A stretch of DNA of 64,000 nt from a virus (lineage: Duplodnaviria > Caudoviricetes). Positions 11,112-52,736 of this stretch are shown here, piece by piece (position 1 is the stretch's first letter; each line of letters opens with the position of its first letter). The position numbers were made by a program, and so were the translations under genes. Location of the stretch: positions 33,073 to 97,072 of IMG/VR virus record IMGVR_UViG_3300003086_000114, one strand, 5' to 3'. The notes beneath the pieces were generated by a model that was given only the letters and a program-made list of their open reading frames with translations, was not told where the DNA came from and did not search any database.

Positions 11112-11344
11112 GACTAGAAGAAGTAAATTATAAAACTGGAATAGCACTACTTGAAGAGTTTGTACAATCAAGTTGGATTGCAGATCTTACGTACGACGAA
11201 GATATGGGATCTGTTATAATGACAACATTAGGCGGTGGGAGTTATGAAATTCCTGACGTGCCAAAAGAAGAATACGACGCATGGATAGCCGCTGGCAGTA
11301 AAGGAAAGCATTGGTGGAGCGACATAAAAGGAATTTACACATGA
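11108..11344 (+). CDS. KTSC domain protein with leader MRLEEV...LLEE
   Basis: SSWIADLTYD...GGSYEIPDVPKEEYDAWIAAGSKGKHW matches the KTSC pattern (SS.I..i.Yd...G..Y.Y..VP...y..l..A.S.G). Confidence 0.8.
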   Translation: MRLEEVNYKTGIALLEEFVQSSWIADLTYDEDMGSVIMTTLGGGSYEIPDVPKEEYDAWIAAGSKGKHWWSDIKGIYT

Positions 11345-14300
11345 ATCTTACAGAACGATTAAACAAAGAACTAAACAAATTATCAAACGTATTAGTAGAA
11401 ACTAGAACTCCTAACCAAATACTACTTGAGTTAAACGTAATTAACGCAGATGCTATTGATGTATTCTTAAATAGTATTGCTGAAAACTTACCAAGTGACG
11501 CACTAAAGAAGTGGCTTACATCAAGAGCTAAAAAGTACTTAATTAACAGTGAAGAAGATAATTCAGTTATTACACAGTTTAGTAATAAAGCTGAGCCGTG
11601 GATGAAAGCTAGACAGAAAGAAGGTGTAGCACTATACAGATTCAATCCAAGTACAACACTAAACAATAAACTTACACACATTGTAGATTGGCTAAAGGCC
11701 GCAAATGATACAGCAACCGGTATAACACCAGCAGACCAACAGTCAGTTACACGTGCAAAGAAAACACTCAAAGGTATAAACAACGTATCTATTACACAAG
11801 CGTTTGAGCATGCTGAGCTCTGGGTTAAAGAACTTAACTCAAAAGGTAGCAGTGAATTAGTTAGAGCGGCAGATGAAACTGGTCTAGTACCAGTATTAGC
11901 ACATGGTGAATTTAAATGGTACAGACTAACGGACCAAGAATGCTTATCCCGTGAAGGTGATGTAATGGGTCACTGTGTTGCTAGTTACGGCAATGATGTT
12001 AAAAAAGGCGATACAGTTATATACAGTCTTAGAGATAGACAGAATTATCCACACGTTACATTAGAAGTAAGAAGTGGGCAGTTAGAACAAGTAAAAGGCA
12101 AGCAAAACAGACCACCAGTAGAAAAGTACGAACGTGCTACTATTGAAATGTTGAACTCATTAGATGTAGAACCAAATAGAACTGGTATGAGCGACATTAA
12201 AGGTATGAACCTGTTGTACAATTCTGCCAATCACAGATATGGACATTTAAGAGATGTAGCAACTGCTATAACTACCATTGACGGTAAACTTAACATATTA
12301 GCAAATAGCGGATCAGGTCCTAGAAGTGGCACATCATACTACGGCTACGTTGGAGATAACGAAGTCTTTAGTATAGACTGGGACGGTTATGAGTACGAAC
12401 TTGGAACTAAGAACGAACCAGGTATTGCTGAAGTTAATATTGAAGGTGCAAAATACGCAGACAATCAGTACAAAATAGCAAAAGTAATTTCAATGCTGTC
12501 TACACAGCTAATGGATCCCGATACTGGAGAATTTGCGAATTGGAGTAGATATAATGCAGGTCGTCAAGGGTTAGGTGATTACCTTATATCATCTGAGAAT
12601 AATGATAGTCTTATTATGTACGAAGACCAAGGTGAAGAACTGTATGATGATCGTTCTGGCAATACACTACGAAAAGGCAGTAACATAACAACTAAAAGTT
12701 CATGGAGTTCAGATACCGGACCTATGATCATACATATAAAGAACGGTAAGTTAAAAGATAAAGTAAGTTACATTGAAGAAAATGGCAAGGAAATATGGAA
12801 AGCAGGTAGCTATTCAATAAGTGATGATTCATCAACAGTATTCGTTAACTACATTAATTCATTAAACCCAGACGCTAGACCTTACCTTGCTGATTATGGT
12901 ATCTACCAAAATGTAGACAATCGCTCAGCATCAGAAACAATTTCAAAGGTAGCGAAACCGTTAGCAAAGTCTAGAAAGGTTGCACTGTATCATACAACAA
13001 GTCCTAGTATATATAGCACTCCAGAGCAAACAAAACGTTATGTTGTAGCACTAGAAAATCAACAACTCATCAACATAAATTACGGTGATGATGCTAGCGC
13101 CGGTACTGACTTTAGACTTGATTGGCCAGATGAACAAACTGTTACAGATGTCGCCAAGCATATAGTAACTGTTCTCAATAAGGTGAACTTAGGTGAGAAA
13201 TTCCCGTTCAATGATGCAGGTAAGGTATCAGCAATGGAATCTGTAGGTATTTACTTCAGTAGAGATAAACGAATATTCACTACAGACCATAGTGTAGCTG
13301 GTGAGCACTACGAACACGAAGACAAGAACTTTACTGCAATCAGAACGCACAACCATTTAAAAATATATAACGAAGGTATTGAGCTTGCACAGTTTGGACT
13401 ACAAACAGCTTACAGAGACGGCAAGACAATAGCAACAATTACAGAGTTCACAGTTAAAGATCGTTTACAGTTACTAAATAATCTAAGGAAAGTAGCTGAC
13501 ACATTAAACAGCTATAACGTACTAAGAGATAAAGACGGGTACGGATCACAAGAAAGAGCGAACAAGGCAATGACTGCTATTGGCTTTAAGTATGGTCCCG
13601 CAAAAGGTTGGACTGGTATGAAGACTTCGCCAACATCAGAATCAACCGGCGAAGCTGAAGGTACACCATACGAAGTCTTTAAGTTCAGAAAAGAATACTT
13701 ACTTAAGAATTCAGAAACAGGTAATTTAATAGCTACCCTGCCAACAGTTAAAGAAAGCGGATACGACAAAGATGTACTCTATAATATCGAAATGGAGTCA
13801 ATTAAAGGCAGTGCAATTGATATAGTTGCTCAAGTCATAATGGACTTATCAGAAAAAGGTGAGATACACCTAAGACTAAACGATGACGAAGAAGACTTAA
13901 AGTTCAAAATGAAAGACAAAGGCTTCTTCGTGTCAGGCGGAAAATTAGAAAAGATATCAGACGTACATCCAACTAGTGTTGTGTCAAAAGGACCAGGTGG
14001 TACCTGGGTAGAAGAAGCATATACTACAGCAGTAGATGAAAAGATACATAACATGCAGGAGAAAGCTGACACCGGCGGATACACAACACGAGATCAGAAC
14101 CCTGTGAGCAAGTACCATAGAGGCAGAATGGCCGCAACAGGCGAGCAGTACACGCTATATAACAATAAAAAACCAGTTTTAAGAGTTATAGCAAGAAATC
14201 AAGATATTCAAATAATCTACAGCATCAATAATAGTACAGCCAAGTACGATAAAGAGAGTGTAGCTGTTGGTGTCGAAACTAACAGAGATTTATTAATGTC

Positions 14301-14682
14301 AATACATAAAAAGACATTAGACAGATTAGTAAAGAAATTGAACTTGAATGCAGGCAAGTACCTAACAGACATGGGCTTGTATGTAGCTAAAGGCAAGCTT
14401 TCAAGCATAGCTGATAATCCAAAGCTTAAAGGCTTTATGGATGGTGAGATTGTATACGAAGATGGACATAAGTGGAAAAAATCTAGATTCAATAAATGGG
14501 TATTATCAATGCCTAATGAACAAGGACGCGAAGTGGACCTTATAACAGTAGAAGTCAACGAGGGCGGTATTGAAGAGATTAGATTTAGAGATAGAAAAGT
14601 TAAACGACAAACTAAACTATACAGAGCGTTTCTTAACGATATGATGGATATCAGTGACGAACTATACGGACTAGATGAATGA
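11341..14682 (+). CDS. Large (~1113 aa) protein with PcfJ-like domain
   Basis: LSREGDVMGHCVASY...IYSLRD...PHVTLEV...QVKGKQN. ATG 11341 overlaps the upstream stop (ATGA) and is preferred to 11311. Confidence 0.7.
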   Translation: MNLTERLNKELNKLSNVLVETRTPNQILLELNVINADAIDVFLNSIAENLPSDALKKWLTSRAKKYLINSEEDNSVITQFSNKAEPWMKARQKEGVALYRFNPSTTLNNKLTHIVDWLKAANDTATGITPADQQSVTRAKKTLKGINNVSITQAFEHAELWVKELNSKGSSELVRAADETGLVPVLAHGEFKWYRLTDQECLSREGDVMGHCVASYGNDVKKGDTVIYSLRDRQNYPHVTLEVRSGQLEQVKGKQNRPPVEKYERATIEMLNSLDVEPNRTGMSDIKGMNLLYNSANHRYGHLRDVATAITTIDGKLNILANSGSGPRSGTSYYGYVGDNEVFSIDWDGYEYELGTKNEPGIAEVNIEGAKYADNQYKIAKVISMLSTQLMDPDTGEFANWSRYNAGRQGLGDYLISSENNDSLIMYEDQGEELYDDRSGNTLRKGSNITTKSSWSSDTGPMIIHIKNGKLKDKVSYIEENGKEIWKAGSYSISDDSSTVFVNYINSLNPDARPYLADYGIYQNVDNRSASETISKVAKPLAKSRKVALYHTTSPSIYSTPEQTKRYVVALENQQLININYGDDASAGTDFRLDWPDEQTVTDVAKHIVTVLNKVNLGEKFPFNDAGKVSAMESVGIYFSRDKRIFTTDHSVAGEHYEHEDKNFTAIRTHNHLKIYNEGIELAQFGLQTAYRDGKTIATITEFTVKDRLQLLNNLRKVADTLNSYNVLRDKDGYGSQERANKAMTAIGFKYGPAKGWTGMKTSPTSESTGEAEGTPYEVFKFRKEYLLKNSETGNLIATLPTVKESGYDKDVLYNIEMESIKGSAIDIVAQVIMDLSEKGEIHLRLNDDEEDLKFKMKDKGFFVSGGKLEKISDVHPTSVVSKGPGGTWVEEAYTTAVDEKIHNMQEKADTGGYTTRDQNPVSKYHRGRMAATGEQYTLYNNKKPVLRVIARNQDIQIIYSINNSTAKYDKESVAVGVETNRDLLMSIHKKTLDRLVKKLNLNAGKYLTDMGLYVAKGKLSSIADNPKLKGFMDGEIVYEDGHKWKKSRFNKWVLSMPNEQGREVDLITVEVNEGGIEEIRFRDRKVKRQTKLYRAFLNDMMDISDELYGLDE

Positions 14683-15029
14683 GATTTAGAGAACTACTAA
14701 CAGAATCAACTGAAATAGAGTTCGTCTGTGCTAACCCAGATTATTGCGATGCTACTTCTCCCAAAAGACAACGTAGTCTATTTAAAGCATTAAAAAGTGT
14801 TCCTGGAGTAGTTGTATATAAACAAGACTTTGGTGCTGGAGAAGTTAGCATGGCAGTAATACTAAAATCGTCTGCTAATAAACACACAGTAAACCAAATA
14901 AACCAAATAGCATCAGACAACGGTGTTGCAATTGACCTTACATCTGCTGTAAGTGATATGTTCGTCGACAGTATATATACTGGTGATTTAGAAAATTTAG
15001 CAGATTGGTACGATAGCGATGAGATTTAG
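14679..15029 (+). CDS. Hypothetical protein with leader MRFRELLTE
   Basis: ORF track; ATGA overlap; leader motif. Confidence 0.65.
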   Translation: MRFRELLTESTEIEFVCANPDYCDATSPKRQRSLFKALKSVPGVVVYKQDFGAGEVSMAVILKSSANKHTVNQINQIASDNGVAIDLTSAVSDMFVDSIYTGDLENLADWYDSDEI

Positions 15030-16410
15030 AGAACTACTAGAATACAAAAGAGATAAAACTGCTACCAACTTAGGTGAACAGTTAATTAACACGATAGTGC
15101 AATCTGTACAAAGTCCGATTGGCAACACTAGTCAAACACTGCAACGTATTATTCCAGGAATAACTTACTTTTCTCCTAGTTCGAGACCAGATGATGCAGA
15201 ATTGCAAGAAATCCATGCGACACTAGGCGCTCATATACATAACGTATTACAGTTCTTTGAAGATGCTGACCCTACACCAAACAAGCAATACACTGAATGG
15301 ATTATTAGACGATACATAGACGGTGGCATTAGATACTTAGAAGATGTGGATAGCACAGTAGCAGAGAACTTAGCAATATATCACGAACTTAAAACGCGCA
15401 GAATGATACCACCTGAGTTAATGGATATCGGCAAAATTAAAGGTGATACTGGTAATAACAGTGTAGCAAGATTCTTCCGTAATGTATATAACATATACAG
15501 AGATCTACCAGAGCAACAAGAGAAGATAGACAAAGGTTCATCTAAAGAAGTCTACGAAGATGATGAAATAAGAATAGTACATCCAGCAGATCAAAAAGCG
15601 GCTTGTTATTACGGGCAAGGAACACAATGGTGTACTGCTAGTACTAAGTCACGTAACTACTTCAAAGATTATAACGATGATGGTGCATTGTATATTATAT
15701 TACCAAAGAAGCCAGGTCACAGAGGCGAGAAGTACCAACTGCATTTTGAGACTGACTCATACATGAATGAGAACGATGTGGGTGTGCCGTTATATTCTTT
15801 AATAAAAAGGTGGCCTCAACTACACAAAATATTTAAAGGAAATATATTTAATGCATATCGTGGTGATGAGGATATCCCAACAGGTAATCCATCTATACTA
15901 TTAGCAGAACCAGAGACTTTAGAGAATTGGTTAGACATTACAGCAGACAAGATAGTACCAAAGATTGAGAAAGAGCTAGCAAGCCCAACAAGTGTTTATA
16001 ATTGGTTAGATTTGTCTCAGATAGAAGATAGTATACAAAGCGGTCTTGATAGCCCGGACTTAACTAAAGACCAAAAATTCACAATGGAGAAAAAGTTAGA
16101 TGGATTGTATAGCATTATTAATCACATCTCAGAAAATAAACAAAATACTACTAACGTAATTTATCCTCTAATTGACGACTTAGACGAACTTGAAAAGTCA
16201 TTAAAAAATCATGGCGATGCAACAAGTACTATGATAAACAATATTCCTAGAATGTTCCCTGGTATGGATACTATGATGAATGACATAGGTGATAGATATG
16301 TAACTAGCGATCTTAGAATTAAAGTTATGAATAAGGTGTGGTACGCTCTTACTAGAGAACTAAACCCTTACTTTGCTAACGCATGGGATCCATTATCTAA
16401 GTATCGTTAG
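15019..16410 (+). CDS. GTQWCTA-motif (PcfJ-related) protein with leader MRFRELLE
   Basis: DPTPNKQYTEW, AACYYGQGTQWCTA and EKYQLHF; paralogue of 9699-11111. Confidence 0.6.
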   Translation: MRFRELLEYKRDKTATNLGEQLINTIVQSVQSPIGNTSQTLQRIIPGITYFSPSSRPDDAELQEIHATLGAHIHNVLQFFEDADPTPNKQYTEWIIRRYIDGGIRYLEDVDSTVAENLAIYHELKTRRMIPPELMDIGKIKGDTGNNSVARFFRNVYNIYRDLPEQQEKIDKGSSKEVYEDDEIRIVHPADQKAACYYGQGTQWCTASTKSRNYFKDYNDDGALYIILPKKPGHRGEKYQLHFETDSYMNENDVGVPLYSLIKRWPQLHKIFKGNIFNAYRGDEDIPTGNPSILLAEPETLENWLDITADKIVPKIEKELASPTSVYNWLDLSQIEDSIQSGLDSPDLTKDQKFTMEKKLDGLYSIINHISENKQNTTNVIYPLIDDLDELEKSLKNHGDATSTMINNIPRMFPGMDTMMNDIGDRYVTSDLRIKVMNKVWYALTRELNPYFANAWDPLSKYR

Positions 16411-16456: not shown

Positions 16457-17386
16457 ATGAAAATTATTTTTAGAGAATCATCAGGTAATGTAATAATCAA
16501 CAACCAACTTTGGTCCATTAACGATCATTGTGTAGAACTCAATATACCGCATAAATGGCAACTACTTGAGTTTCAAAGCGATAGTTATATAAAAATTCTA
16601 AATGTAGAACTAGATGGACAAAAGATCGATTACCTGTTGTACATTATGTTTGACGATGACAAAAGATGCACGTTCGGAGATATATCCAAAGGAACAACTC
16701 AATATCTGCCTATCCATCCAAACTATGCTATTTTTAGATCCACTGTGTGTCAACAGTTACCTAACGGGTGGTACGGTAAACAGATCTATGAACATTTTGA
16801 ATTCTGTATAGACAGACCTGTTACATTTTCGTCTACGCAACCCAAACATATTCAGGATTATTTTGCAATGGACACAGGAGCACATTGGATCAAAAAATAT
16901 CACAAAGATAGTAGTTGGTTTTTCAATGAAACACACGATGTTGCTCAAGTCAAACAGTCAATCGATCTTAGCCTGTTTGAAATTGATGCCGCAGGCGGAG
17001 ATACTAACAGTGGATGGACTATGCGTACCTTAAAAGGTGTAAGCATAGACAAATTAAAGCCGATGGGTTTGACATTTTTTTATGATTTGGCCGTGAAACA
17101 CAAATTTATTAGAATTCCAACACTTAGTTGCAACACACTAGAGCCCGGAGGTCATATTGGCATACACATAGATCGTGGTCCAGATAAACCCCTTAGGAAA
17201 AAAATATATCTCAGTCTTGACCCCAGCGATGATGTATATTTTAAATTCAGCACAACAGGTCTAGTGCCGATGAACACACAAAAAAGCATGTGGTTAAACA
17301 CAGATGGACATGTTCATGCTGTGGTTAATGACAGCACAACGTCAAGACAGGTTATCAGTATATGTGGCGATGCTGATTGGACTTAA
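16457..17386 (+). CDS. Protein with C-terminal AspH-like 2OG-Fe(II) oxygenase (DSBH) domain
   Basis: LEPGGHIGIHID (HxD)...WLNTDGHVHAVVN...R. Confidence 0.7.
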   Translation: MKIIFRESSGNVIINNQLWSINDHCVELNIPHKWQLLEFQSDSYIKILNVELDGQKIDYLLYIMFDDDKRCTFGDISKGTTQYLPIHPNYAIFRSTVCQQLPNGWYGKQIYEHFEFCIDRPVTFSSTQPKHIQDYFAMDTGAHWIKKYHKDSSWFFNETHDVAQVKQSIDLSLFEIDAAGGDTNSGWTMRTLKGVSIDKLKPMGLTFFYDLAVKHKFIRIPTLSCNTLEPGGHIGIHIDRGPDKPLRKKIYLSLDPSDDVYFKFSTTGLVPMNTQKSMWLNTDGHVHAVVNDSTTSRQVISICGDADWT

Positions 17387-17545
17387 TATAATCATATCAT
17401 AATTAATTAATAAATAATGGCACAACGCCACGATTATGTGACGCCGGAATAAACTTGGACGCTTTGGTTAATTTAACCATTTATCGAATCAGTAACGCCC
17501 TTCCGTACGATACAGTTCTGTATCTAGTATTAACCAGGAAAAATA

Positions 17546-18181
17546 ATGGATAATATAAACATATTGGATAATCGATGGGACGATGCTAGGGTACAGAGGG
17601 GTTTAGATAAGAAGCCTATACAAACCGACTATGAGTACATAGGACGGATGGAAGTAGACTTTGAAAAAATCAAATCTGACTTAATAGATCATGATTGGCT
17701 TAGAACCGATTGGTACGGGATGAACTGGAGAGTCAAAGCCCAACAGGAACAAACAGCGTTCCCTAGAAACGAAAGCACTAAGTACGTTGACAAGAAACAG
17801 GTCGTGTTCACCGAACTACCAAGCGAAATCTGCAAGAAACCCTACGAACCATTTGACAAACTAGCTAAGGATCTTGGCGTGTACATGCCCGAAGAATACA
17901 AAGACACAGAATACTCTCTAGTTAAAATAAACAGACAGATGCCCGGCGACGTGCTATGGATGCATTATGATTTTATGGCAGATTCTGATTGGGTCAAGTA
18001 TTTGGTTTTTTTAAATGATTGGGCTCCAGGTCAAGTTTCGTTATGGGGCGAAGAGGCTATAGTTGGTTGGAAGAGTGGTGACTGCTACAAAGTAGATGTC
18101 TTAACTACTCCACACGGCGCTGTAAATTGTGGCCCGGAAGAACGTTGGTTAGCAACAGTCAGAGGGAAATCGATCAACTGA
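17546..18181 (+). CDS. 2OG-Fe(II) oxygenase-like DSBH protein
   Basis: QMPGDVLWMHYD...LNDWAPGQ...WKSGD...PHGAVNCGPEER. Confidence 0.7.
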   Translation: MDNINILDNRWDDARVQRGLDKKPIQTDYEYIGRMEVDFEKIKSDLIDHDWLRTDWYGMNWRVKAQQEQTAFPRNESTKYVDKKQVVFTELPSEICKKPYEPFDKLAKDLGVYMPEEYKDTEYSLVKINRQMPGDVLWMHYDFMADSDWVKYLVFLNDWAPGQVSLWGEEAIVGWKSGDCYKVDVLTTPHGAVNCGPEERWLATVRGKSIN

Positions 18182-18328
18182 TCGTTTATAACTCAAAACA
18201 ACAAAATTTATTAATTTATTAATTTAATAGCAATTAGTATGTATACTACTTGTCAAGCAACGCGAAGAATACACCTGCTTCGTTTTGTTTTTAACTTTTA
18301 ACAGGTGGAAAAAAGGAGATATTATCTT

Positions 18329-19246
18329 ATGAAAAAGATAACCGGATTAGTTGCAATTGGGTTCGCCACAGCACTAACAACAGTAACAGCAGGAAATTGG
18401 TTCACAGATGGGTTTGACTGGAACAATTCCAGCAAAGATATGGATATAATTGTTAATGGATCTTTAACAGGGTCTACAAACGCAATTGCACAACTTATTG
18501 CTAAGGATAGCCAATCTGGTACATTCCCTGGTATTAAGTTAACTGCTGTAGCACCAGGAAACGCTTGTAAGGGTTTCGCGCTAATTAAGCAGAGACCAGC
18601 TGATGAAACGTTTGTAACTTACTATGAGAACTACTATCAATTAGTTGCTAAACAAAAAAATGATGCATCTTGTCCGTATATCAGTTTTGAAAATGCAACA
18701 CCGATCGTTTCTTATGTACAATCATTGTACTTAATAACTAACGAAAAAACATTAGCAGACTTTGGTAAGCAGAAACTAAAGATTGGTTATTCGGGTACTG
18801 GACCTGAAAAAGATTGGCACGATAAACTTACTCAAAATTTCGGCCAGGATCATACTTTTGTAGCATATTCAGGTACTGGTAATCTGAGATCAGGAATGGC
18901 ATCGGGTGAAGTTGATGCTATTTGGACAACATATAGACACTTTTTGAAATTAAAAGATCAAAAAGACCAGTATACAATTGTTATGCGAACCTTAGATACG
19001 TTAGATGTTGATGCGCCGATCCTAGCGGAATACTTCAATGACACATCATTATCAAGAGCATTCTTGAGTGGCTGGTACGTGTTCAACGATGACGGTACTG
19101 CTAAAACGATTTCAGATAAGTTAGCAAGCGATGTTAAGAATAACACTGGTGAATTTGGCAAATACGCTAACACTAAGAAACTTATCTTAACTTTCGATCA
19201 ACCGACGCAAAAGGAAATGGAAAAGAACCTTAGCTGGGACCAATAA
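18329..19246 (+). CDS. tctC: TctC/Bug-like periplasmic substrate-binding protein
   Basis: Signal peptide (MKKITGLVAIG...), GSLTGSTNAIAQ, VAPGN, IGYSGTG, VAYSGTG...GEVDA; adjacent TctA. Start 18329 follows AAGGAG. Confidence 0.65.
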   Translation: MKKITGLVAIGFATALTTVTAGNWFTDGFDWNNSSKDMDIIVNGSLTGSTNAIAQLIAKDSQSGTFPGIKLTAVAPGNACKGFALIKQRPADETFVTYYENYYQLVAKQKNDASCPYISFENATPIVSYVQSLYLITNEKTLADFGKQKLKIGYSGTGPEKDWHDKLTQNFGQDHTFVAYSGTGNLRSGMASGEVDAIWTTYRHFLKLKDQKDQYTIVMRTLDTLDVDAPILAEYFNDTSLSRAFLSGWYVFNDDGTAKTISDKLASDVKNNTGEFGKYANTKKLILTFDQPTQKEMEKNLSWDQ

Positions 19247-19263
19247 ACTAGAGGACACTGCTT

Positions 19264-19791
19264 ATGCTACAAAAATCAATCGGAAACATTTTCATTGATA
19301 GAGAGACGATACATGAGCAGTGTAATCAGAGTACTGGAAAATACGAGGCGGCCACTGATATTTTATCTAGGCCGCCTTTACCAGGTTCTAATTACACTGA
19401 ATTAAATTCACACTCTTTTCGCTTCGATGAACATATAGTCAGCCCTTTAGTTGATATGGATAAACTTTGGTCTGTTACAAATGCGGATTCTACAAAACCA
19501 AGTCATATGGTTATGTATATGATGAAGCCAGCAATGTTTACTCCTTTACACGCAGATCAAATGCAAACGTACAATAAGAGCCTCAATGACGACGACATAA
19601 CACGCAGACGTAGATGGTGGATTGCAGTTGATGATTGGATGCCGGGACATATTCTTCAGCATGAAGATTGCACTGTTGCACACTATAAGTCAGGAGATGT
19701 ATTTCCTTTTGTCTTTCAAAATAAACATGTTGGAGTAAATGCAAGTCTTACAGATAGGTACTACATTATATTTGCGGCCTTAGCTAAGTAA
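19264..19791 (+). CDS. 2OG-Fe(II) oxygenase-like DSBH protein
   Basis: PLHAD...DDWMPGH...YKSGD...HVGVNASLTDR. Confidence 0.7.
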   Translation: MLQKSIGNIFIDRETIHEQCNQSTGKYEAATDILSRPPLPGSNYTELNSHSFRFDEHIVSPLVDMDKLWSVTNADSTKPSHMVMYMMKPAMFTPLHADQMQTYNKSLNDDDITRRRRWWIAVDDWMPGHILQHEDCTVAHYKSGDVFPFVFQNKHVGVNASLTDRYYIIFAALAK

Positions 19792-19793
19792 AT

Positions 19794-19837
19794 ATGTTAG
19801 TAAAATCATTATAATTGTGTAATGATTTTACTAACAT
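19794..19837. repeat. Perfect 18-bp inverted repeat (8-nt spacer) between paralogous oxygenase genes
   Basis: ATGTTAGTAAAATCATTA-taattgtg-TAATGATTTTACTAACAT. Confidence 0.85.
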
Positions 19838-19860
19838 TTTGAAACTAACACAGGAACATT

Positions 19861-20388
19861 ATGCTACTAAAACCAATTGGAAATATATTTATTGACAAAG
19901 AAAGAATACTCAAGGAGTGTACCCCCGAAGCCGGGACATACGAGGGGGCTGGAGACATCTTATCTAGGCCGAACTTACCGGGATCTAATTACACTTCATT
20001 AAATTCACACTCCATTTTCTTCGATGACGATATTGTTCGTCCTTTAGTTGATATGGATAAACTTTGGGAAATAACTGATGCAGATCCTACAGCACCGAGT
20101 CGACTTATTATGTATGTACAGATGCCGGGTTGCTTCACTCCCCTACATGTGGATTGGATGCAAACTTACAATAAGAGACTCGAAGGTGAAGAAATAAGAC
20201 GCAGAGGCAGATGGTGGCTTTCAGTTAACGACTATATCACAGGACAAGCTATTATGCACGAAGAATATGTAATCGCACATATGAAGTCAGGCGATGTATT
20301 CTCTCTAGATTACAAAGGAGAACACTGCGGAGTAAATGCAAGTCTTGACTATAGATATTACGTTACATTCTCGGCATTAATCAAGTAA
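19861..20388 (+). CDS. 2OG-Fe(II) oxygenase-like DSBH protein (tandem paralogue of 19264-19791)
   Basis: PLHVD...KSGD...HCGVNASLDYR; same length (175 aa) and many identical blocks. Confidence 0.7.
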   Translation: MLLKPIGNIFIDKERILKECTPEAGTYEGAGDILSRPNLPGSNYTSLNSHSIFFDDDIVRPLVDMDKLWEITDADPTAPSRLIMYVQMPGCFTPLHVDWMQTYNKRLEGEEIRRRGRWWLSVNDYITGQAIMHEEYVIAHMKSGDVFSLDYKGEHCGVNASLDYRYYVTFSALIK

Positions 20389-20391
20389 ACT

Positions 20392-21702
20392 ATGATTGAT
20401 CTAGTACAAGTTGCGTTACTTGGTGCAATATTTGGCATAGTAGCTGGATTAATTCCAGGCGTTGGCATATTAGTTGTCATAGCAATGTTGTACCCATTCC
20501 TGTTAGACTTTCAACCCGTAGAGCTGTTGCTATTTTATATCTCTATGGTTAGCAGTGCTCAATACTTCGGCAGTGTAACAGCAATATACCTAGGACTTGC
20601 GGGCGAAGCCAGCAGTTTCCCTGCGGTAATCGAAGGCTACGCATTGTCTAAGCAAGGCAAAGGACAACTGGCGATATTTTTAACAGGTGTTGGCAGTTTC
20701 ATCGGCACAATGTTTGGCTTGGTTTTTATTGCGGTATTAAGTGTATCAGTCTTAGATTTGACACTTACTACCATGGAAAAAATGATTTTATTCATGGCAG
20801 TTGGTCTTAGTTTAATTCTTACAACAAAGAATAAATTACTAACAGATCTAAGTTTAATTCTTTTAGCAATTGGTTTAAGTCATATTGGAGTTAGTATAAA
20901 CAGCAATGTACCTTTAGTCCATTTTGATCTAATGTTTTTAAGTCAAGGTATTAGTTACTTTACATTAGCGGCAGGATTACTTTGCATGAAAGAAGTTATG
21001 CATACTGAGAAAACCAACACAAAAATTATTATTGTAGAAAACTACAATGCTATTAAAGAGTTAGTAAAGCACAAATATTCAATAATCAGAGGCAGTATAA
21101 TTGGTAGTATCGGTGGTATGTTACCAGGGTTAACCACAATTAGTGCTAGTCATTTGGCCTACGTAGCAGAAAAAAGAGTACATAAGGACACATACACAAA
21201 AGGCAACACACATTGTTTAACTAGTAGCGAAACTGCTAACAACAGCGGTAGTATTACCCAACTGTTTCCATTGTTAATGTTTGGTATACCGATAACAGGA
21301 AGTGAAGCCATACTATACCAACTGCTCGGAACGAAAGGGTGGGAAGGATCAGCAACACAGCCGTTAGCATTGTTAGCTAGCAATTGGTGGTTGATAGTAG
21401 GTGTTAACTTAATCATGTTAATCTTAGCAATTAGATTTTCAAGACACTTTGCAAAAATGATCCCTAGCAATGAGCTGTTGTTAAAGTTAGGAATCTTCTT
21501 TATTTTAGCAATCGTGGTTTACGTCGTAGGAGACAAACAAACTGGTTTTGGCTTGTTTAATTTGTTCTTGTTTTTGTTTGCAACAGGCATTGCATATCTA
21601 TTCCCTAAAGTAAACTTTTTACCTTTTGTATTTTGGATGTGCATAGGAGATATATGGCTAGAAAATTTTTACACTTTTTTACAACTTTATGAAATTGCAT
21701 AA
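20392..21702 (+). CDS. tctA: Tripartite tricarboxylate transporter large permease TctA
   Basis: Polytopic hydrophobic protein with GLIPG, QYFGSVTAIYLGLAGEASS...EGYALSKQGKG, GMLPG, SETANNS and FGIP. Confidence 0.85.
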   Translation: MIDLVQVALLGAIFGIVAGLIPGVGILVVIAMLYPFLLDFQPVELLLFYISMVSSAQYFGSVTAIYLGLAGEASSFPAVIEGYALSKQGKGQLAIFLTGVGSFIGTMFGLVFIAVLSVSVLDLTLTTMEKMILFMAVGLSLILTTKNKLLTDLSLILLAIGLSHIGVSINSNVPLVHFDLMFLSQGISYFTLAAGLLCMKEVMHTEKTNTKIIIVENYNAIKELVKHKYSIIRGSIIGSIGGMLPGLTTISASHLAYVAEKRVHKDTYTKGNTHCLTSSETANNSGSITQLFPLLMFGIPITGSEAILYQLLGTKGWEGSATQPLALLASNWWLIVGVNLIMLILAIRFSRHFAKMIPSNELLLKLGIFFILAIVVYVVGDKQTGFGLFNLFLFLFATGIAYLFPKVNFLPFVFWMCIGDIWLENFYTFLQLYEIA

Positions 21703-22756
21703 ACGCACAGGTTGGCAAGTTGGAGATACTTTCTTTAACAATAAGTGGGATGCGATTCAGTATGCAACGGACAATCCGCAATCATATAAAGCCTACTGCA
21801 ACGACGACACGTGGGACAATGCAGATTGGACAATTGAGCCCGAGCAAGATATAAAACAATTAGAGAAAAATCATGCGGAGTATTTAAGAAACAAGTATAA
21901 AACTTTAGCACTTTTTTTTAGTGGTGGTGTAGACAGTAGCACAATATTAGACACATTTATAAAAAATAAAATACCATTGGACTATATTTTTGTTTGGTAT
22001 CAACATGACTACAATGCAAGTTATAGCAAAGATATACGTTTAGCTATGCAATACCTAGAACAAAATAAAAGCAAACTAATGGGTGCTAAAATAATCTGCG
22101 GAGAAAAATTAGATCACTTCGAAGGTAATAGCATTTATAATTTTAAAAATGACGTACGTGATATAAATTGGGGTCTGCGGTTTCATCATTGGGGACATGC
22201 AGAAAATTTAAGATTTAGACAACCCGATATATACGACGAGGTCAACGAAGACGGATGTATCGTTACAGGCAGTAACAAACCCTACGTATTTAAAGACGAA
22301 AAAGGGTTCTATATGCAACATGTTGATCGTGATGATGAAAGTTGGGGACAGCCTTTTTTAGTTGAGATGTTTTGGTTGGGCAAAGATCCAACACTACAGA
22401 TCAAACAATGTCATTTAGCCAAACAATGGTTAGAAGAACACGATCTATCAAATTCTAATAAAATCTACAAAAGTAGCGATACAGAAAAATTTTGGAGTTT
22501 CAACAAAAGTTTCGGAAGAACAAGTATTGATGAATTTTTTTACCAGAAAAATTGTTTTGGAGAGAAAATCGAAGATGAATACTTTTCTCAAGGTTATAGC
22601 AAAGAAAACAGCAACAGTTATTGTGCTGAATACTTTAAAGAATGGCGACATACAGAGTCATACAACAATCTAGTTCTAGAGATAGATAAAATAGATAAAA
22701 AGTTTATCAAAGATGGCGCACTGGGTTGGCTCACAAAGAAAAGATATTTAGAATAA
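21689..22756 (+). CDS. PP-loop (adenine nucleotide alpha-hydrolase / asparagine-synthase-like) protein
   Basis: LFFSGGVDS PP-loop at about residue 78; lacks the QueC Zn-binding Cys cluster. Confidence 0.65.
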   Translation: MKLHKRTGWQVGDTFFNNKWDAIQYATDNPQSYKAYCNDDTWDNADWTIEPEQDIKQLEKNHAEYLRNKYKTLALFFSGGVDSSTILDTFIKNKIPLDYIFVWYQHDYNASYSKDIRLAMQYLEQNKSKLMGAKIICGEKLDHFEGNSIYNFKNDVRDINWGLRFHHWGHAENLRFRQPDIYDEVNEDGCIVTGSNKPYVFKDEKGFYMQHVDRDDESWGQPFLVEMFWLGKDPTLQIKQCHLAKQWLEEHDLSNSNKIYKSSDTEKFWSFNKSFGRTSIDEFFYQKNCFGEKIEDEYFSQGYSKENSNSYCAEYFKEWRHTESYNNLVLEIDKIDKKFIKDGALGWLTKKRYLE

Positions 22757-22781: not shown

Positions 22782-24035
22782 TTAATTAATTAGATTGCTA
22801 TATTTTTTCAATATAGCATCACCCACTTGTTTAGATTTACTATAAGCATATTCTAAAGCCTGTTTATGGCTTCCACATCTTCGAGGCTTAATTCCAAACT
22901 TATTGAGATAGATATTATCGTAATAAAATAACGTTCCACCGGGCATTGTGTAAAACTGTTCTTCTCTTAGTGCTAGTGCTTCTTCAAGGTTATTATGCAA
23001 CTCGTTTTTTAATATTTTATAAAACTTGTCACTATAAAAATGTTTTCTGTTAAATTCTACAATTTTAGTTGTCTGTTGTATTAATTTCTTGTATTCAGTT
23101 GGGTTTAAGTTATTTAAATAACTGATCAAATCAGTTATTTTTTTAAATCTTGCATCTGTATCTTCTTCGTAGTCGTAGCTTTCATCCCATATATGGTCAA
23201 ATGTCTTAAAACCGTAACTTTTTAAGTACTTAATAGAATGTGGTCCGCCAAATAAAATAAACGGCTGTTGCATAACAATAGGTTTAAATATTTTCTCAGT
23301 TAAATGTACTTTTTCTGTATCGAACATAGTCTCTGGAACAATGTGTATATCAAATTTGCTCTGGTCTTTCCACTCTATTGTTGCACTTAAATCACTTGAT
23401 AACTCAATATTGTGTTTATCTAAAATCGGACAATACACATCTATATTTGAATTTTTTAACAGTTGCAGTATATCTTTTCTGTATTTGCGTGTACCGCTAA
23501 CACCTCTTATATAACACCCGAATTTATTTTTATTACTGTTGTTTACAGGTGATAGCATTTCATACATGCTATACCAGTATCTGCTTAAAAACGCATTAGA
23601 CCAAAAATGAAACGGTATATGAAAGTTGTCCGAAACCCAAGATACATCCTTGCTGTTAATTTCACTTACAGCAATTATTGGGGTATATATACCCCTACTC
23701 CTAAACAAAAAGAATTCGTTGTTTGGTAAGTCGATGTGCTTACTAGCAATGGCATTATCATTGGTTAAATGTTCTTTAGTAACTTCACAGTACGCATGTA
23801 TATCCAACGGCTCTTGATCAAACATAACTAGTGTTCCGTTTGACTCGCGTTCTGTAATAAGTTCGGGTTGAGATGAATCTGATTGCATATTTTCTGGAAA
23901 ATATGGAGTTGTTGCATGAACTAAGTCATGTAGGTTTTTGGACCCTAAATCGGTAAAATGTAAAACCTCTACGTTTTTTTTGTTGATGTAGCAGTAATAG
24001 CGTAGGTAGTCGTATAATTGATTAGGGGAAAGCAT
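22782..24035 (-). CDS. Glycosyltransferase-like protein (GT10-like ET..TEK family)
   Basis: IVPETMF...HLTEKIFKPIVMQQPF...GFKTFDHIWDESYD. Likely start is ATG 24035 (MLSPNQ), downstream of a minus-strand GTAAATA at 24061-24067. Confidence 0.6.
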   Translation of the reverse strand: MLSPNQLYDYLRYYCYINKKNVEVLHFTDLGSKNLHDLVHATTPYFPENMQSDSSQPELITERESNGTLVMFDQEPLDIHAYCEVTKEHLTNDNAIASKHIDLPNNEFFLFRSRGIYTPIIAVSEINSKDVSWVSDNFHIPFHFWSNAFLSRYWYSMYEMLSPVNNSNKNKFGCYIRGVSGTRKYRKDILQLLKNSNIDVYCPILDKHNIELSSDLSATIEWKDQSKFDIHIVPETMFDTEKVHLTEKIFKPIVMQQPFILFGGPHSIKYLKSYGFKTFDHIWDESYDYEEDTDARFKKITDLISYLNNLNPTEYKKLIQQTTKIVEFNRKHFYSDKFYKILKNELHNNLEEALALREEQFYTMPGGTLFYYDNIYLNKFGIKPRRCGSHKQALEYAYSKSKQVGDAILKKYSNLIN

Positions 24036-24159
24036 ATAATGAATAAAAATATTAGTATGATATTTACCCGAGGGAGTTAAACATAGTAAATGTTTGTGAA
24101 GTAGCACACCAACTAGCAAAGGCGAAAAGTTAATAGAAGTGTGCTAATACAAAACCAGC

Positions 24160-24166: not shown

Positions 24167-24194
24167 CTGATAATAAAAATATTTGGATTATGCA

Positions 24195-27100
24195 ATGAAG
24201 CCTGTACTTATACCTGACATCGTTTACACTGATTTACGTGAAACTCTAAACAAACTAGACAACGTACTAGTAGAGAAACAAACAAAGTTCTCTTTTAAGA
24301 CACTTAATCGTTGGGGTCCATGGGCATCTGATGTTGCTGATTACATGACTAATCAATTAGATGTTAGTCAAGGTGTTCCGAGCGACGTACAAACATTCGT
24401 AAAGCAGTCAACGTTTAGTGATGAGAAGAAACAGCAGATACTAAATGATCCGTACTACGCCAGGAACCTAGCTCAAGTCGCTAGTGCAGTAAACAGAGGC
24501 GACATGGCACCTTTAGGCAATACAGGGCCACAACATTCAGGTGGTACTAGTTTTGGTGGCGGTTCTGGTGTAGGGTTTGAAGGATTATCTAAAGAATTAA
24601 AAAAACTACAAGACATAGTAAAGCGAAAGAAGAGTTCTGATGAAGGCGGTACTAAGGCGTTTTATACACCGTTACCTCCAGAAGATTTAGAATGGGTGTT
24701 ACACGGTCAACCTGCTGATCCAATTCCCCAGACAGGTTCAGTAACTGATAAAGTTGATCCAACATGGGACGGGCAAACAGCAGATGAACTTAGGGCAGAA
24801 TTAGATAAGTCTTACGGCGGCCGTGAAAATTGGGAAGGAACAAAAGAATTTGAATCTCCAGAGACAGAACCTAGCGAATATGTACCATCGGACAAAGACG
24901 ACTATAAAAGTTCGTATGAAGCAGAACTAGGACTTGATACTGGCGAACTTACTACTAGACCTTCTCCGCAAGCTAGAGCAGACGACGAGTCAGATACTAG
25001 AAGCGACTACGAAAAAGAACTAGATAGAAGAGTTAAACAGCAACTTAAAAAGTCTCCAGAAGAGGAGTTCGCTAGATGGTTAAAGCGTTTTGCTTTCACA
25101 GACGATGAAACATTCGCTGACTACGACGAAGAGTTTATTAGATCAAGTTTCGGCGATCAAGCCGCAGAGGCATTTTTAGCATCGCAACAAGAGAGAGAAT
25201 CATTTATAGATACCGAAGTAGATACTGCTCCAGAGACAGAAGTAGATACTGCTCCAGAGACAGAAGTAGATACTGCTCCAGAGACAGAAGTAGATACTGC
25301 TCCAGAGACTGAGGTCGATGATGAGTACTCATTAGGTGATAGTGAAGATTATTCACTTGACACGTGGAAAAAACTGTTCAAGTTCATGGATGCAGATCAT
25401 TTTGCTAATTTTGATGAAGACTTTCTCAGGGCAAACTATAGTGACACAGCCGCTGATGCATTCTTAGCTACTGAAAGACCTATCCCAGATCCAGTTCCAG
25501 ATCCAGAGCCTTCAACTGAAGATATCGCTTCATGGAAAAAACATTACACTGATATGGATCCTGAGGATCTTGAGACAATTACCCCTGAAGATGCTAAAGC
25601 TTACGGACCTGCATCAGTTAAGGCATACGTAGATGCTAAATTAGAAAAGGTACAAAAAACAAAAGACGTAGCAGATGCTTATACGGACGCCGATACACAA
25701 GATACTGATGATAACGTTGTAACCCAAGATCCACCTGAATCAGAATACTATGAATGGTTAAAGCGTTTTGCTAATACAGATGACGAAACATTCAATAGCT
25801 TTGATACAGATTTTATTAGATCAAATTTTGGCGATCAAGCCGTAGAGGCATTTGAAGTTGCACAACAAGAGAGAGAATCATCCACAGAGCCAGAGGTTGA
25901 TTTAACACCAGAGCCTGAAGTAGAAGTAGAGCCTGAAGTAGAAGTAGATACTAACGATGAAAGATTTGCAAAATGGAAAAAACGCTTTGCCGATACAGAC
26001 GATGAAACATTTTCTGAGTATGATGTAGAATTTATTAAATCAAACTTTGGCTCCGATGCGGCACAAGCATTTTTAGCATCGCAACAAGAGAGAGCAGGAA
26101 TTGTAGAGCCTGAAGTAGATACTAGCGATGCAGATCTAAACAGAATAAGGGACCTAGCTGGAGTACTAACTCCAGAGCCACAAGCTAAAGCAGATGAGTT
26201 TGAGACTGCACCAGTATTAACAACAGAATTGCCAGACTTCAGCACAATGACGCAGGAAGAATTCGTAGCTTGGGAAGACAAAGCAATGGACAACTTCATT
26301 GACAATTGGGAGTCAAATCCTAGGTACGCTGGCATGTCAGAAGAAGAAGCAAATGATCAGTTCAATAGTGATTTAGTAAACTTTGAAGAAAGAGTAGGTA
26401 AAAAAGAACCACAAGCTAAAGCAGACGACACTGATATAGACGCAGACATAGACGATCTAAATACAGCAATAGATGACTTAGATAAAACACAATCTATAAC
26501 AACTGATCCGTACGACACTTCAAACTTCGGACACATGACACAAGAAGAATTTGATAGGTGGGAAGAAAGTTTCATAGACGCAGAACTTGATAAAATGTAT
26601 GATAATGATGGTAACCAAGTAATAAGCGATGAAGATTTTGATGCTAATTTAGATACTAACACAACTAAACTCTACCAGCAGTACCAAAAAGCTCGTGAAG
26701 AACAACCAGAAGTCGATGCACAAAAAGTATTTACTGATGCTAACGTAGATCAACAAATGCAAATGCCAGGTGAAAGTACGGCAGACTTCTTAACACGAAC
26801 AACCAAGATTGATGCAGATAACAGAGCTAAACAAGCACAACAAAAAATAGACGATCAGGCAGTACTCGATGCATTAGAAAAAGCAGGCAGAAGTAGTAAA
26901 GCAAAAGGCGTGTTTAGAAAACCTATGGCAAAAGATGATACTCCTGTTAATAAAACGTATACATCAGCTAAACCAGAAACTGATGTCAGTAGAGCAATCG
27001 ACACCATATCAGATGCTATTCCAGATAGTGTTAAAGATACAGCAGGCGATGTCTGGGCTGATGTAAAAGGTTACTTCCAAGGTAGTGAAGCAGATAAAGA

Positions 27101-28932: not shown

Positions 28933-28945
28933 AGGAGAAATTAAT

Positions 28946-29164: not shown

Positions 29165-29172
29165 GTGAACTA

Positions 29173-29481: not shown

Positions 29482-29505
29482 TAGTAAATTAAAATATCAA
29501 TCAAA

Positions 29506-30243: not shown

Positions 30244-30245
30244 TC

Positions 30246-30252: not shown

Positions 30253-30257
30253 CACTT

Positions 30258-40823: not shown

Positions 40824-41498
40824 ATGTCATATAACAAGACAAAGACAGACCCGATTCTAGGGAAAAAAGTACATGAGCATTTAACGAAGGCAGGGGTAGA
40901 AACCCCTACTAGAGAATCTATGCTCTCTAGAACAGAAAAGATTGATAAAATTGAAGAACACTTCACTGGTATTATGTCTGTACTAGGGTTAGACCTAGAA
41001 GATGATAGTCTAACAGATACACCTAAGCGTGTTGCTAAAATGTACACAAATGAGATATTCTGGGGGTTAGACTACGAAGCATTTCCTAAATGCACAGCAG
41101 TATCAAACAAAATAGAATATGATGAAATGGTAGTAGAGCGTGGTATTAACGTGCAAAGCAATTGCGAACATCACTTTGTTATTATAGATGGTACAGCTAC
41201 AGTTGCATACATTCCAAACAGAAAGGTATTAGGACTATCTAAAATGAATAGAATAGTAGAGTACTTCTCTAAACGTCCTCAAATACAAGAACGCTTAACA
41301 GCACAAATTTGGCATGCTTTAGAATACATACTAGAAACTGATAACATTGCTGTAGTTATAGATGCACAACATTTCTGTGTTAAGTCAAGAGGAGTAGAAG
41401 ATGTCGGTAGCAGTACTACTACTAGTAAACTAGGCGGTGCATTTAAACGTGATCCTGTTACTAGAAGTGAGTTTATGTCTCTAGCTCGCAAGAATTAA
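40824..41498 (+). CDS. folE: GTP cyclohydrolase I
   Basis: DTPKRVAKMY, SNCEHHF, GLSKMNRIV, RPQIQERLT and HFCVKSRG. Confidence 0.97.
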   Translation: MSYNKTKTDPILGKKVHEHLTKAGVETPTRESMLSRTEKIDKIEEHFTGIMSVLGLDLEDDSLTDTPKRVAKMYTNEIFWGLDYEAFPKCTAVSNKIEYDEMVVERGINVQSNCEHHFVIIDGTATVAYIPNRKVLGLSKMNRIVEYFSKRPQIQERLTAQIWHALEYILETDNIAVVIDAQHFCVKSRGVEDVGSSTTTSKLGGAFKRDPVTRSEFMSLARKN

Positions 41499-42040
41499 TG
41501 GATAAGATATGGGTTGCTGGACATATTAATCCGTGGTGGAATAATCTACATCGAAAACTTAATTATCAAAACGAACCGTTTAATAATACAAAAGATACCG
41601 AGAGGTGGCGTACTATAGGGTTTACGCATGATCAGTTTACAGGTGACATGTATGATATGCGTAACTCAGTACCATCTTGGATGGACCTAGATCGATTACA
41701 AAAAGAATTCCAGTTTGAATATATAAGTTGGAGTTTTTATTGTATGACACCTGGTGTTATTTTGCCAGAACACGTCGACACATTTAACAGATTTAAGCAG
41801 TTGTACAATACAAAAAACAAGGTAATTGTTCGGGCATTGATAATGTTAGAGGATTGGCATCAAGGGCATTATTTAGACATGGACGGAACAGCAAGTACAA
41901 ATTGGAAAGCTGGTGATTATTATATATGGGAAGAAGCATGCCCTCATTGTGCGGCAAATATTGGTACAACTAATCGATACACATTGCAGTTAACCGGATT
42001 ACTTAACAAACCACTAACGCAACATTGCCCGCAACATTAG
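41498..42040 (+). CDS. 2OG-Fe(II) oxygenase-like DSBH protein
   Basis: TPGVILPEHVD...LEDWHQGH...WKAGD...PHCAANIGTTNRYTLQLTG; TAATG-coupled to folE. Confidence 0.75.
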   Translation: MDKIWVAGHINPWWNNLHRKLNYQNEPFNNTKDTERWRTIGFTHDQFTGDMYDMRNSVPSWMDLDRLQKEFQFEYISWSFYCMTPGVILPEHVDTFNRFKQLYNTKNKVIVRALIMLEDWHQGHYLDMDGTASTNWKAGDYYIWEEACPHCAANIGTTNRYTLQLTGLLNKPLTQHCPQH

Positions 42041-52735: not shown

Positions 52736-52736
52736 A

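Follow-up and report, generated by a model that had tools for sequence, protein, structure and literature searches.

A putative carboxylate uptake-and-conversion cassette of large aquatic phages that pairs a TctC-type binding protein with an AsnB-like PP-loop enzyme

Why would a phage carry a solute transporter together with a set of oxygenases and an ATP-dependent enzyme? The question is raised by a block of seven genes (positions 16457–22756) in a 64 000-nucleotide stretch of caudoviral DNA, here called the window, which comprises bases 33073–97072 of the 97 kb IMG/VR record IMGVR_UViG_3300003086_000114. An earlier annotation made from the sequence alone (the original prediction) had described the block as the binding protein TctC and the permease TctA of a tripartite tricarboxylate transporter (TTT), interleaved with four 2-oxoglutarate (2OG)-Fe(II) oxygenases and a PP-loop enzyme, and had proposed that they form a self-contained uptake-and-modify module. 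We found that these genes recur together, in rearranged orders, on other phage contigs and that the most constant association among them is that of the binding protein with the PP-loop enzyme, which suggests that the phage-encoded proteins may capture an extracellular organic acid and convert it inside the infected cell.

A conserved cassette in aquatic phages

All seven open reading frames (ORFs) of the block lie on the + strand, in the order and at the positions first proposed: ox1 (16457..17386, 309 aa), ox2 (17546..18181, 211 aa), the TctC/Bug-type binding protein (18305/18329..19246, 313/305 aa), ox3 (19264..19791, 175 aa), ox4 (19861..20388, 175 aa), a short-form TctA permease (20392..21702, 436 aa) and the PP-loop enzyme (21689..22756, 355 aa), whose start overlaps the TctA stop by 14 nt both in the window and in the related locus L003. 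When the window proteins were compared with Pfam, PHROGs and NCBIfam, TctA alone was recognized.

Genomic contexts were fetched for TctA homologs with 73%, 64%, 60%, 50% and 48% identity to the window protein. The gene order is ox1-ox2-PBP-TctA-PP (PBP, periplasmic binding protein; PP, PP-loop enzyme) in loci L003–5 and L014, ox2-PBP-TctA-PP in L011 and PBP-TctA-PP in L008/9. Locus L006/7 has TctA-ox2-PBP-x-ox1-PP followed by a 445-aa gene on the opposite strand, and in L012 the 445-aa gene precedes TctA-ox2-PBP-ox1-PP, with MoxR/VWA genes and DsrC coming next. The binding protein, TctA and the PP-loop enzyme are kept in all six architectures, in varying orders, and ox1, ox2 and the 445-aa gene are each present in some of them. 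A comparison of every ORF of the 97 kb record with the sampled loci (5–21 kb each) found the module genes alone in common. With nothing else in common between the record and the flanks sampled, the block has the behaviour of a cassette, and the sequence comparisons suggest a unit that is conserved and horizontally mobile among large aquatic phages. Close homologs of the block genes come from seawater and marine metagenomes. The original prediction had made its reading depend on the co-occurrence of these genes in other genomes, and they do co-occur.

The binding protein and the enzyme as the core pair

We clustered the genes neighbouring the enzyme in 86 enzyme-bearing viral loci, the sampling having gone through the enzyme, and assigned an annotation to each family that recurred. 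A canonical TctC (PF03401, E = 8.5e-16) heads the list of neighbours with 40 loci; TctC of the window type occurs in 10 loci and DctP of the tripartite ATP-independent periplasmic (TRAP) type (E = 9e-48) in nine. According to a hidden Markov model (HMM) tally over the 86 loci, 56 encode a binding protein, 22 encode TctA, 17 encode both and 27 encode a protein of the double-stranded β-helix (DSBH) type. The canonical TctC directly adjoins the enzyme in 43 of 53 cases and shares its strand in 48, and a hydrophobic, signal-peptide-like N-terminus is present in 46 of the 53 TctC proteins vs none of 110 enzymes. The enzymes were also grouped into 52 lineages (clusters at ≥50% identity), of which 33 have a binding protein no more than three genes away, 22 have one next to the enzyme and 13 have DSBH genes. 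Per gene, 38.5% of the enzymes have an adjacent binding protein, compared with a background of 5.8% (about sevenfold). On a 60 kb phage contig assigned by binning to a metagenome-assembled genome (MAG), TctC and the enzyme occur on their own as a bare pair between structural and lysis genes, and up to three or four enzyme paralogs, along with several paralogs of the binding protein and TctA, occur in a single 20 kb locus. Judging by gene content, the conserved core appears to be the binding protein plus the PP-loop enzyme, with TctA and the oxygenases as frequent but apparently dispensable accessories.

In loci L013, L092 and L093 the enzyme is paired with DctP rather than TctC, often with a small DUF2061 membrane protein nearby. 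A MoxR-type AAA ATPase (12 loci) and a DUF2201/VWA 'metallopeptidase-like' protein (11 loci) are found a few genes away from the enzyme, for example, in L016, L036, L039, L055 and L012.

The binding protein and the permease

The ORF of the binding protein is open from a GTG at 18305, and the homologs and the family HMM support an ATG start at 18329. The family HMM alignment begins at residue 9, and the hydrophobic N-terminus reads as a typical signal peptide. Pfam gave a sub-threshold match to NMT1 and no match to PF03401, and phmmer against PDB returned nothing for either this protein or the PP-loop protein. The family is tiny, with 11 representatives among 1.8 billion proteins. Its profile had two matches in PDB in all, both of them to TctC proteins, and the canonical phage TctC HMM scored the window protein at E = 3.6e-6 and 4.1e-7. 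The AlphaFold model (pLDDT 84.7) gave a consistent picture: the top 17 PDB chains returned by Foldseek all belong to Bug/TctC proteins (2dvz at 1.5e-13; 4x9t with a TM-score of 0.66–0.71), and 2f5x is also among the top matches. The fold and profile comparisons thus argue for a highly diverged periplasmic binding protein with a predicted Bug/TctC fold, the second feature on which the original prediction had made its reading depend.

The identification of TctA was straightforward. The protein matches PF01970 with E = 5.3e-65 and 220 bits (cut-off, 28.9) over positions 3–416 of 423, and its 436-aa homologs form a clade reaching down to 45% identity. Nucleotide and TctA-protein searches of GenBank phages found no relative of the cassette, only ~25% identical TctAs in unrelated records; a scan of IMG/VR with the single TctA sequence returned nothing. 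More distant short TctAs on the phage contigs P0092 and P0041 have an adjoining TctC-like gene and DSBH genes nearby.

No gene for TctB, the third TTT subunit, had been seen in the block. A dedicated scan of the 97 kb record for small ORFs with multiple transmembrane (TM) segments agreed with this, finding none on the coding strand, although such a hydropathy scan could miss an atypical TctB; likewise, no small multi-TM neighbour was found beside 21 of 23 short phage TctAs (426–446 aa). The positive control for the scan came from L044, where a 138-aa ORF with five TM segments ends 5 nt upstream of a 494-aa TctA (12223–13707), the only long TctA among the otherwise short ones. This phage contig also carries a short TctA, a TctC and two PP-loop enzymes. 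With a TctB-like ORF next to the long TctA of L044, it appears that phages hold both TctB-dependent and apparently TctB-less forms of TctA. By analogy with TTT systems, the TctC and TctA of the window are predicted to carry out binding-protein-dependent carboxylate uptake.

A second TTT set is found just upstream of the window (L010:13496–16923, record positions 28495–31922). It consists of a 530-aa TctA2 (PF01970, E = 1.5e-88) followed directly by a 386-aa TctC-like protein with a weak match to the phage TctC HMM (E = 1.7e-5); a fifth DSBH paralog (135 aa) lies about 250 bp downstream, and no second PP-loop enzyme was found with this set.

The PP-loop enzyme

The PP-loop motif SGGVDSS is located at residues 78–84 of the enzyme, and its G79, G80 and D82 are invariant across 21 family members. 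VIA-align comparison of the structural model (pLDDT 85.8, pTM 0.88) ranked AsnB (1ct9) first, with Z = 11.1 over 280 aligned residues, followed by human ASNS (10.2), beta-lactam synthetase (9.2), carbapenam synthetase (8.8) and TsnB9 (8.3). These top five matches are all AsnB-family proteins (236–284 aligned residues), whereas generic PP-loop enzymes score ~7. Foldseek returned partial LarE matches alone (TM-score ~0.3), and the likeness to AsnB, to which the enzyme is about 10% identical, appeared with the exhaustive aligner only. No recognizable glutaminase domain is present in this 355-aa protein, in which the PP-loop motif starts at residue 78. At the N-terminus, M1 alone is invariant, Cys is found at position 2 in none of eight aligned diverse members, and a conserved family-specific segment of ~70 aa stands in place of the glutaminase domain. 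As modelled, the enzyme folds like an AsnB/beta-lactam-synthetase-type synthetase without the glutaminase domain, which refines its earlier naming as a PP-loop protein.

The sequence profiles were far less specific. Neither the Pfam Asn_synthase nor the NCBIfam AsnB models matched any of the 21 + 8 family members checked; Pfam, NCBIfam and PDB-sequence families gave nothing above threshold, and the weak matches obtained were to generic PP-loop families (ATP_bind_3, 0.013; TilS_N, 0.003; LarE, 0.026). The N-acetyl sugar amidotransferases (WbuX/WbpG/PseA), which we had presumed to be a lead for this enzyme, had no NCBIfam match among eight diverse members at E values up to 0.5, a result that is compatible with distant kinship.

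A profile search of IMG/VR revealed at least 238 relatives of the enzyme, many of them on contigs of 200–357 kb, and the best matches in BFVD are uncharacterized proteins of uncultured Caudovirales. No relative was detected among 50 697 GenBank phage records with two different members as queries, and 185 579 species genomes yielded three matches, all on MAG contigs where a binding protein is adjacent or close to the enzyme. Thus, the family looks virus-restricted.

The oxygenase-like proteins and the 445-aa protein

None of the proteins ox1–ox4 has a Pfam match of its own. Their assignment comes from two family alignments and from a paralog of ox2–ox4 encoded elsewhere in the window, w41498 (41498..42040, + strand, 180 aa). 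In ox2, ox3, ox4 and w41498, which are about 21% identical, the H-x-D, H and R columns are invariant (alignment A3); in ox2 these are H140-x-D142, H190 and R200, and the motifs read H-A-D...H...R in ox3 and H-V-D...H...R in ox4. The w41498 protein matches PF05118 with E = 1e-4, exactly at the curated cut-off of 22.6 bits, and thereby anchors the ox2–ox4 family to PF05118. The best PDB match of the A3 profile is proline 3-hydroxylase (1e5r, E = 0.052), with the motif columns aligned, followed by AtsK. Homologs of ox2 with 50–73% identity are found in L003–5, L006/7, L011 and L012.

The ox1 protein has a different layout, with an uncharacterized N-terminal domain of ~220 aa and a C-terminal AspH/LpxO-like DSBH domain. 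Its family has invariant H233, H237-x-D239, H287 and R297 (alignment A4), and five of 11 members match PF05118 (best E = 6.7e-5), the window ox1 itself scoring below threshold. The ESM Atlas neighbours of ox1 likewise carry PF05118 in a minority of members. In an hhalign comparison, ox1 aligned with the ox2–ox4 profile at E = 1.3e-3 and a probability of 18%, a weak link, with HxD, H and R in register. A search of PDB with the ox1 profile gave albumin-binding-domain matches only, which we judged spurious. Homologs of ox1 accompany the cassette in L003–5, L006/7, L012 and L014. With the HxD...H...R site, which would supply the iron triad and the basic residue for the C5 carboxylate of 2OG, invariant in both families and with PF05118 matches to w41498 and to ox1 homologs, all four proteins probably belong to AspH/LpxO-like DSBH families, in agreement with their original description as oxygenases; five DSBH paralogs with intact 2OG-type sites are thus encoded in one record.

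The tandem paralogs ox3 and ox4 are 59% identical, and ox3 matches the DSBH family HMM with E = 4e-43. No counterpart of either was seen in the sampled cassette loci L003–L009 and L011–L013, which suggests that the duplication is private to the window phage. The spacer between ox3 and ox4 is filled by an 18-bp perfect inverted repeat with an 8-nt loop (19794..19837), possibly an RNA hairpin or, equally possibly, a recombination scar of the duplication.

The 445-aa protein (22782..24119, - strand) is encoded next to the enzyme in divergent orientation, its likely start giving about 417 aa. This family travels with the cassette: homologs flank it in L006 and L012 (31–33% identity over ~310 aa), partial matches occur in L008 and L011, and 12 of the 86 enzyme loci have homologs. 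The protein has no Pfam match, and its profile found nothing in PDB. ESM Atlas returned viral clusters only and a GT10 score of 0.82, below the tool's reliability line of 0.9, so that a likeness to GT10 (fucosyltransferases) is a weak lead.

Proposed function and alternative explanations

Adjacency of a periplasmic protein and a cytoplasmic enzyme that persists through deep divergence is most simply explained by a small molecule that crosses the membrane. Carboxylates are the characteristic ligands of binding proteins of the TctC and DctP classes, and the synthetase domains of the AsnB family act on carboxylates too, adenylating them and forming amides. This combination of carboxylate-type binding proteins with a carboxylate-adenylating fold favours organic-acid import followed by ATP-dependent amidation, and we give about an even chance to the idea that the cassette serves to take an organic acid from outside the infected cell and to trap it chemically within. 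In such a scheme, the signal-peptide-bearing TctC-type protein would be exported to the host periplasm, bind a carboxylate and hand it over to the short TctB-less TctA permease of the phage. In relatives that have no TctA, the ligand would be delivered to the membrane components of a host TTT or TRAP system, TctA being an add-on for hosts without suitable membrane components. In the cytoplasm, the glutaminase-less PP-loop enzyme would use ATP to adenylate the imported carboxyl group and form an amide with ammonia or another amine, and ox1–ox4, as AspH/LpxO-like Fe(II)/2OG oxygenases, might hydroxylate the substrate or the product. Beyond the observed gene identities, active-site motif conservation and conserved linkage and the predicted folds and locations, we infer the direction of flux, the adenylation and amidation chemistry and the action of all the proteins on one molecule.

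A broader version of this proposal, which we put forward more tentatively and rate somewhat below an even chance, is that the virus-restricted, glutaminase-less AsnB-like enzymes are dedicated cytoplasmic partners of phage-encoded TctC or DctP proteins. Through export of a binding protein of their own, in some cases together with a short TctA that needs no TctB, large aquatic phages would re-aim host secondary transporters at a specific extracellular carboxylate, which would be trapped by ATP-dependent amidation, and hydroxylases and radical SAM enzymes would elaborate the product. The evidence supports a functional module for uptake and modification, but not its self-contained nature, as many relatives have the binding protein only and must depend on membrane components of the host. 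The original prediction had offered two uses for the imported compound, as a co-substrate for hydroxylation or as a substrate for ligation by the PP-loop enzyme, and the AsnB-like carboxylate-amidating fold favours the latter.

Several observations weigh against organic-acid import and amidation as the function of the cassette. There is no binding protein or TctA within 10 kb of the enzyme in 25 of the 86 loci. The enzyme served as the entry point to these loci, and sampling in the reverse direction was small in scale: a TctA-motif scan yielded 13 stretches, only six of which are true TctA, too few for a proper reverse test, and in the TctA-first sample one type of TctA has an adjacent enzyme and another does not. 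The distant short TctAs adjoin TctC and DSBH genes, but with a different short PP-loop protein or none. The AsnB-like assignment derives from predicted structure (Z = 11.1), with sequence profiles seeing a generic PP-loop only, and the family motif GxDKP reads GSNKP in the window-type enzymes, so that catalytic details may differ. Finally, the recurrent radical SAM, cytidylyltransferase, epimerase and methyltransferase neighbours would also fit a glycan or other biosynthetic island.

The last point leads to an alternative that we consider unlikely: that the cassette is part of a glycan or envelope island in which the enzyme would be a sugar-acid or N-acetyl-sugar amidotransferase (WbpS or WbuX/PseA-like), the DSBH proteins LpxO-like hydroxylases and the 445-aa protein a glycosyltransferase, with the transporter salvaging a sugar acid or merely co-located. 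PF05118 includes the lipid A hydroxylase LpxO. Enzyme neighbours include a cytidylyltransferase and a ManC-type cupin (17 loci), an NAD-dependent epimerase/dehydratase (11), methyltransferases (11) and radical SAM proteins (15 + 10), as well as a weak aminotransferase-like match. L012 has DegT and an epimerase, the P0167 contig has a UDP-glucose dehydrogenase, and the 445-aa gene has its GT10-like lead. However, the sugar amidotransferase and AsnB models of NCBIfam matched none of the eight diverse enzyme members, the sugar-nucleotide genes are separated from the enzyme by several genes and do not occur in most cassette architectures, that of the window among them, and the GT10 score falls short of the reliability line. 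A glycan island also leaves the constant periplasmic binding-protein neighbour unexplained, unless the ligand is a sugar acid, in which case the two explanations merge.

It is still less probable, in our estimate, that the TTT imports 2OG, citrate or another acid of the tricarboxylic acid cycle type for the oxygenases or, in the manner of a classical auxiliary metabolic gene (AMG), to boost host metabolism, with the PP-loop enzyme playing an unrelated role. Characterized TTT systems take di- and tricarboxylates, and the five DSBH paralogs with intact 2OG-type sites in one record would fit such a supply route, as would the DSBH genes adjoining TctA-TctC in the distant phage loci L109 and L110 and the listing of tctA as an orphan AMG alongside a 2OG-Fe(II) oxygenase in SUP05 viral contigs (PMC4164917). 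Yet it is with the PP-loop enzyme, its neighbour in 43 of 53 cases, and not with a DSBH protein that the binding protein is most tightly and most often associated, although this comparison of partners is partly biased by sampling through the enzyme. The oxygenases are also the least regular component, occurring in 27 of the 86 loci and in 13 of the 52 lineages and missing from the bare TctC-enzyme pair, which makes a supply of 2OG less likely; besides, 2OG is abundant in the cytoplasm and its import seems unnecessary.

An aspartate-specific scheme, with BugD-like uptake of L-aspartate, an ammonia-dependent asparagine synthetase and AspH-like β-hydroxylation of Asp or Asn, free or in proteins, strikes us as improbable. 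It draws on asparagine synthetase B being the best structural match of the enzyme, on the placement of the oxygenases in the Asp/Asn β-hydroxylase family PF05118 and on BugD and BugE, which bind Asp and Glu, 2f5x and 2dvz being among the top fold matches of the binding protein. Against it, such family names reflect founding members and not specificity, the presence of up to three or four enzyme paralogs with several binding-protein and TctA paralogs in 20 kb argues for diversified substrates, and at ~10% identity to AsnB the Asp-binding residues of the enzyme are not mappable. Chance accumulation of unrelated 'moron' genes in a hypervariable jumbo-phage region, with no functional unit, would suit a phage backbone rich in paralog arrays and unknown genes and promoter and terminator scans that give no sign of a defined operon, but we regard it as very improbable, given that the same five or six genes recur together as the sole genes shared between the record and the sampled flanks, down to 38–50% identity and in rearranged orders, and that the enzyme and the binding protein are adjacent about seven times more often than background.

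Relation to known systems

The window set resembles the bacterial TctABC systems (BugD, BugE, MatC, AdpC, TphC) in having a PF01970 TctA and a Bug-fold binding protein with a signal peptide, and it resembles bacterial catabolic operons in the grouping of transporter genes with genes for enzymes that would process the acid taken up. It differs from them in being phage-encoded, in having no TctB and a short TctA (~436 aa), in a binding protein too diverged for detection by Pfam or single-sequence search, and in its partner, which is a biosynthetic-type adenylating enzyme and not a catabolic pathway. With AsnB, beta-lactam synthetase, CarA and TsnB9 the enzyme has in common the PP-loop SGGxDS and the predicted fold over ~280 residues (Z of 8–11), and adenylation followed by amide formation may be expected of it by analogy. 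Unlike these proteins, it has no recognizable N-terminal nucleophile (Ntn) glutaminase domain or N-terminal catalytic Cys, is only ~10% identical to them and appears virus-restricted. The oxygenases have the HxD...H...R site in common with AspH/LpxO-type PF05118 enzymes and with the 2OG-Fe(II) 'AMGs' of marine phages, whose genomes commonly encode multiple copies, and some members of the window families reach PF05118. In contrast to the PF05118 enzymes, the window copies score below Pfam thresholds and ox1 has a large extra N-terminal domain; in contrast to the scattered oxygenases of marine phages, they are embedded in a transporter/ligase cassette.

The closest precedent comes from SUP05 viral contigs, in which tctA was listed as an orphan AMG of unknown role together with a 2OG-Fe(II) oxygenase and dsrC (Roux et al. 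2014, PMC4164917); it has also been covered in a review (PMC6359870). There, as here, TctA is borne by marine phages, and DsrC is likewise carried by the cassette relative L012. Those reports list a domain match, without a binding protein, a PP-loop partner or a conserved cassette. The DsrC gene of L012 (13972–14265), three genes downstream of the cassette, recalls the gene content of the SUP05 contigs and hints at sulfur-oxidizing Gammaproteobacteria as hosts of some cassette-bearing phages.

In the open-access literature searched, we found no description of a phage TctC, of its pairing with such an enzyme or of the cassette, in keeping with the original remark that no phage system of this layout had been characterized. 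The component families are known; their combination, virus restriction and breadth are new. Phage AMGs are usually single host-derived enzymes, whereas the cassette would be a multi-component, phage-specific uptake-and-conversion system comprising a secreted binding protein, an optional and apparently TctB-independent permease and an enzyme family that turned up among cellular genomes on three MAG contigs only. If organic-acid capture and amidation is the correct reading, phages change the range of compounds that an infected cell draws from the surrounding sea or lake water, by means of a widespread and previously unrecognized viral system for acquiring nutrients or precursors, and the metabolite involved is important enough for many large phages to carry several paralogous sets. 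The short TctAs and a large orphan PP-loop family would gain a testable function, and the cassette would offer a natural test of TctA function without TctB.

Regulatory signals and genomic setting

The original prediction had listed three TAAATA boxes for the block. The boxes are present, one base away from the positions first given, at 16444, 17411 and 19789, the last of them being the stop codon of the preceding gene. In the window, the motif occurs 36 times on the + strand and 28 times on the - strand, and just eight of the 36 precede an ORF of ≥100 aa by 40 nt or less. The full TATAAATA box of T4-type late promoters occurs once in the window, at 4404, and showed no enrichment upstream of genes. 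In these scans, neither TAAATA boxes nor sigma-70 promoters nor intrinsic terminators exceeded the chance level, so that a reading of the boxes as late promoters, and any timing inferred from it, has no statistical support.

The phage origin of the block, on the other hand, was upheld. The 97 kb record has a uniform GC content of ~36% and nearly all its genes on one strand. Its family-B DNA polymerase (PolB) is 44–48% identical to PolB of jumbo myophages with genomes of 349–490 kb (Phosso, Atu_ph07, GAP32, CBB and Vibrio phage 2.275.O), and a gp44-like clamp loader and a ClpB-like ATPase are also encoded; most other genes of the record have no PHROG match. We read the record as a fragment of a novel jumbo phage. 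IMG/VR classifies it as a 'provirus' with a completeness estimate of 28%. We rejected the provirus label in view of the uniform GC and strand bias, the jumbo-phage PolB and the clamp loader, and because neither GC content nor the use of strands nor the genes present show a host-like (cellular) flank in the record; the label may stem from the host-like TctA genes.

Outside the block, the window contains several sets of tandem paralogs: 7502/8632 (51% identity), 52064/52737 (45%), 57182/57844 (40%) and the triple 62671/63195/63605. Another pair, 9699/15019, is 41% identical over the first ~270 aa and matches PHROGs of unknown function. The paralog arrays span 7502–11111, 15019–16410, 52064–53384, 57182–58536 and 62671–64000, and may correspond to the 'leader-tagged arrays' between which the original prediction had placed the block. 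A 1525-aa protein (44208–48785), unusually large for a phage protease, has a subtilase (Peptidase_S8) domain at residues 945–1241. The cassette region is flanked by two giant ORFs with TTG starts, 11311–14682 (1123 aa), which has a PcfJ-like domain (E = 1e-10), and 24183–27689 (1168 aa), which has acidic tandem repeats with units of 24 nt (25208–25309) and 18 nt (25910–25948).

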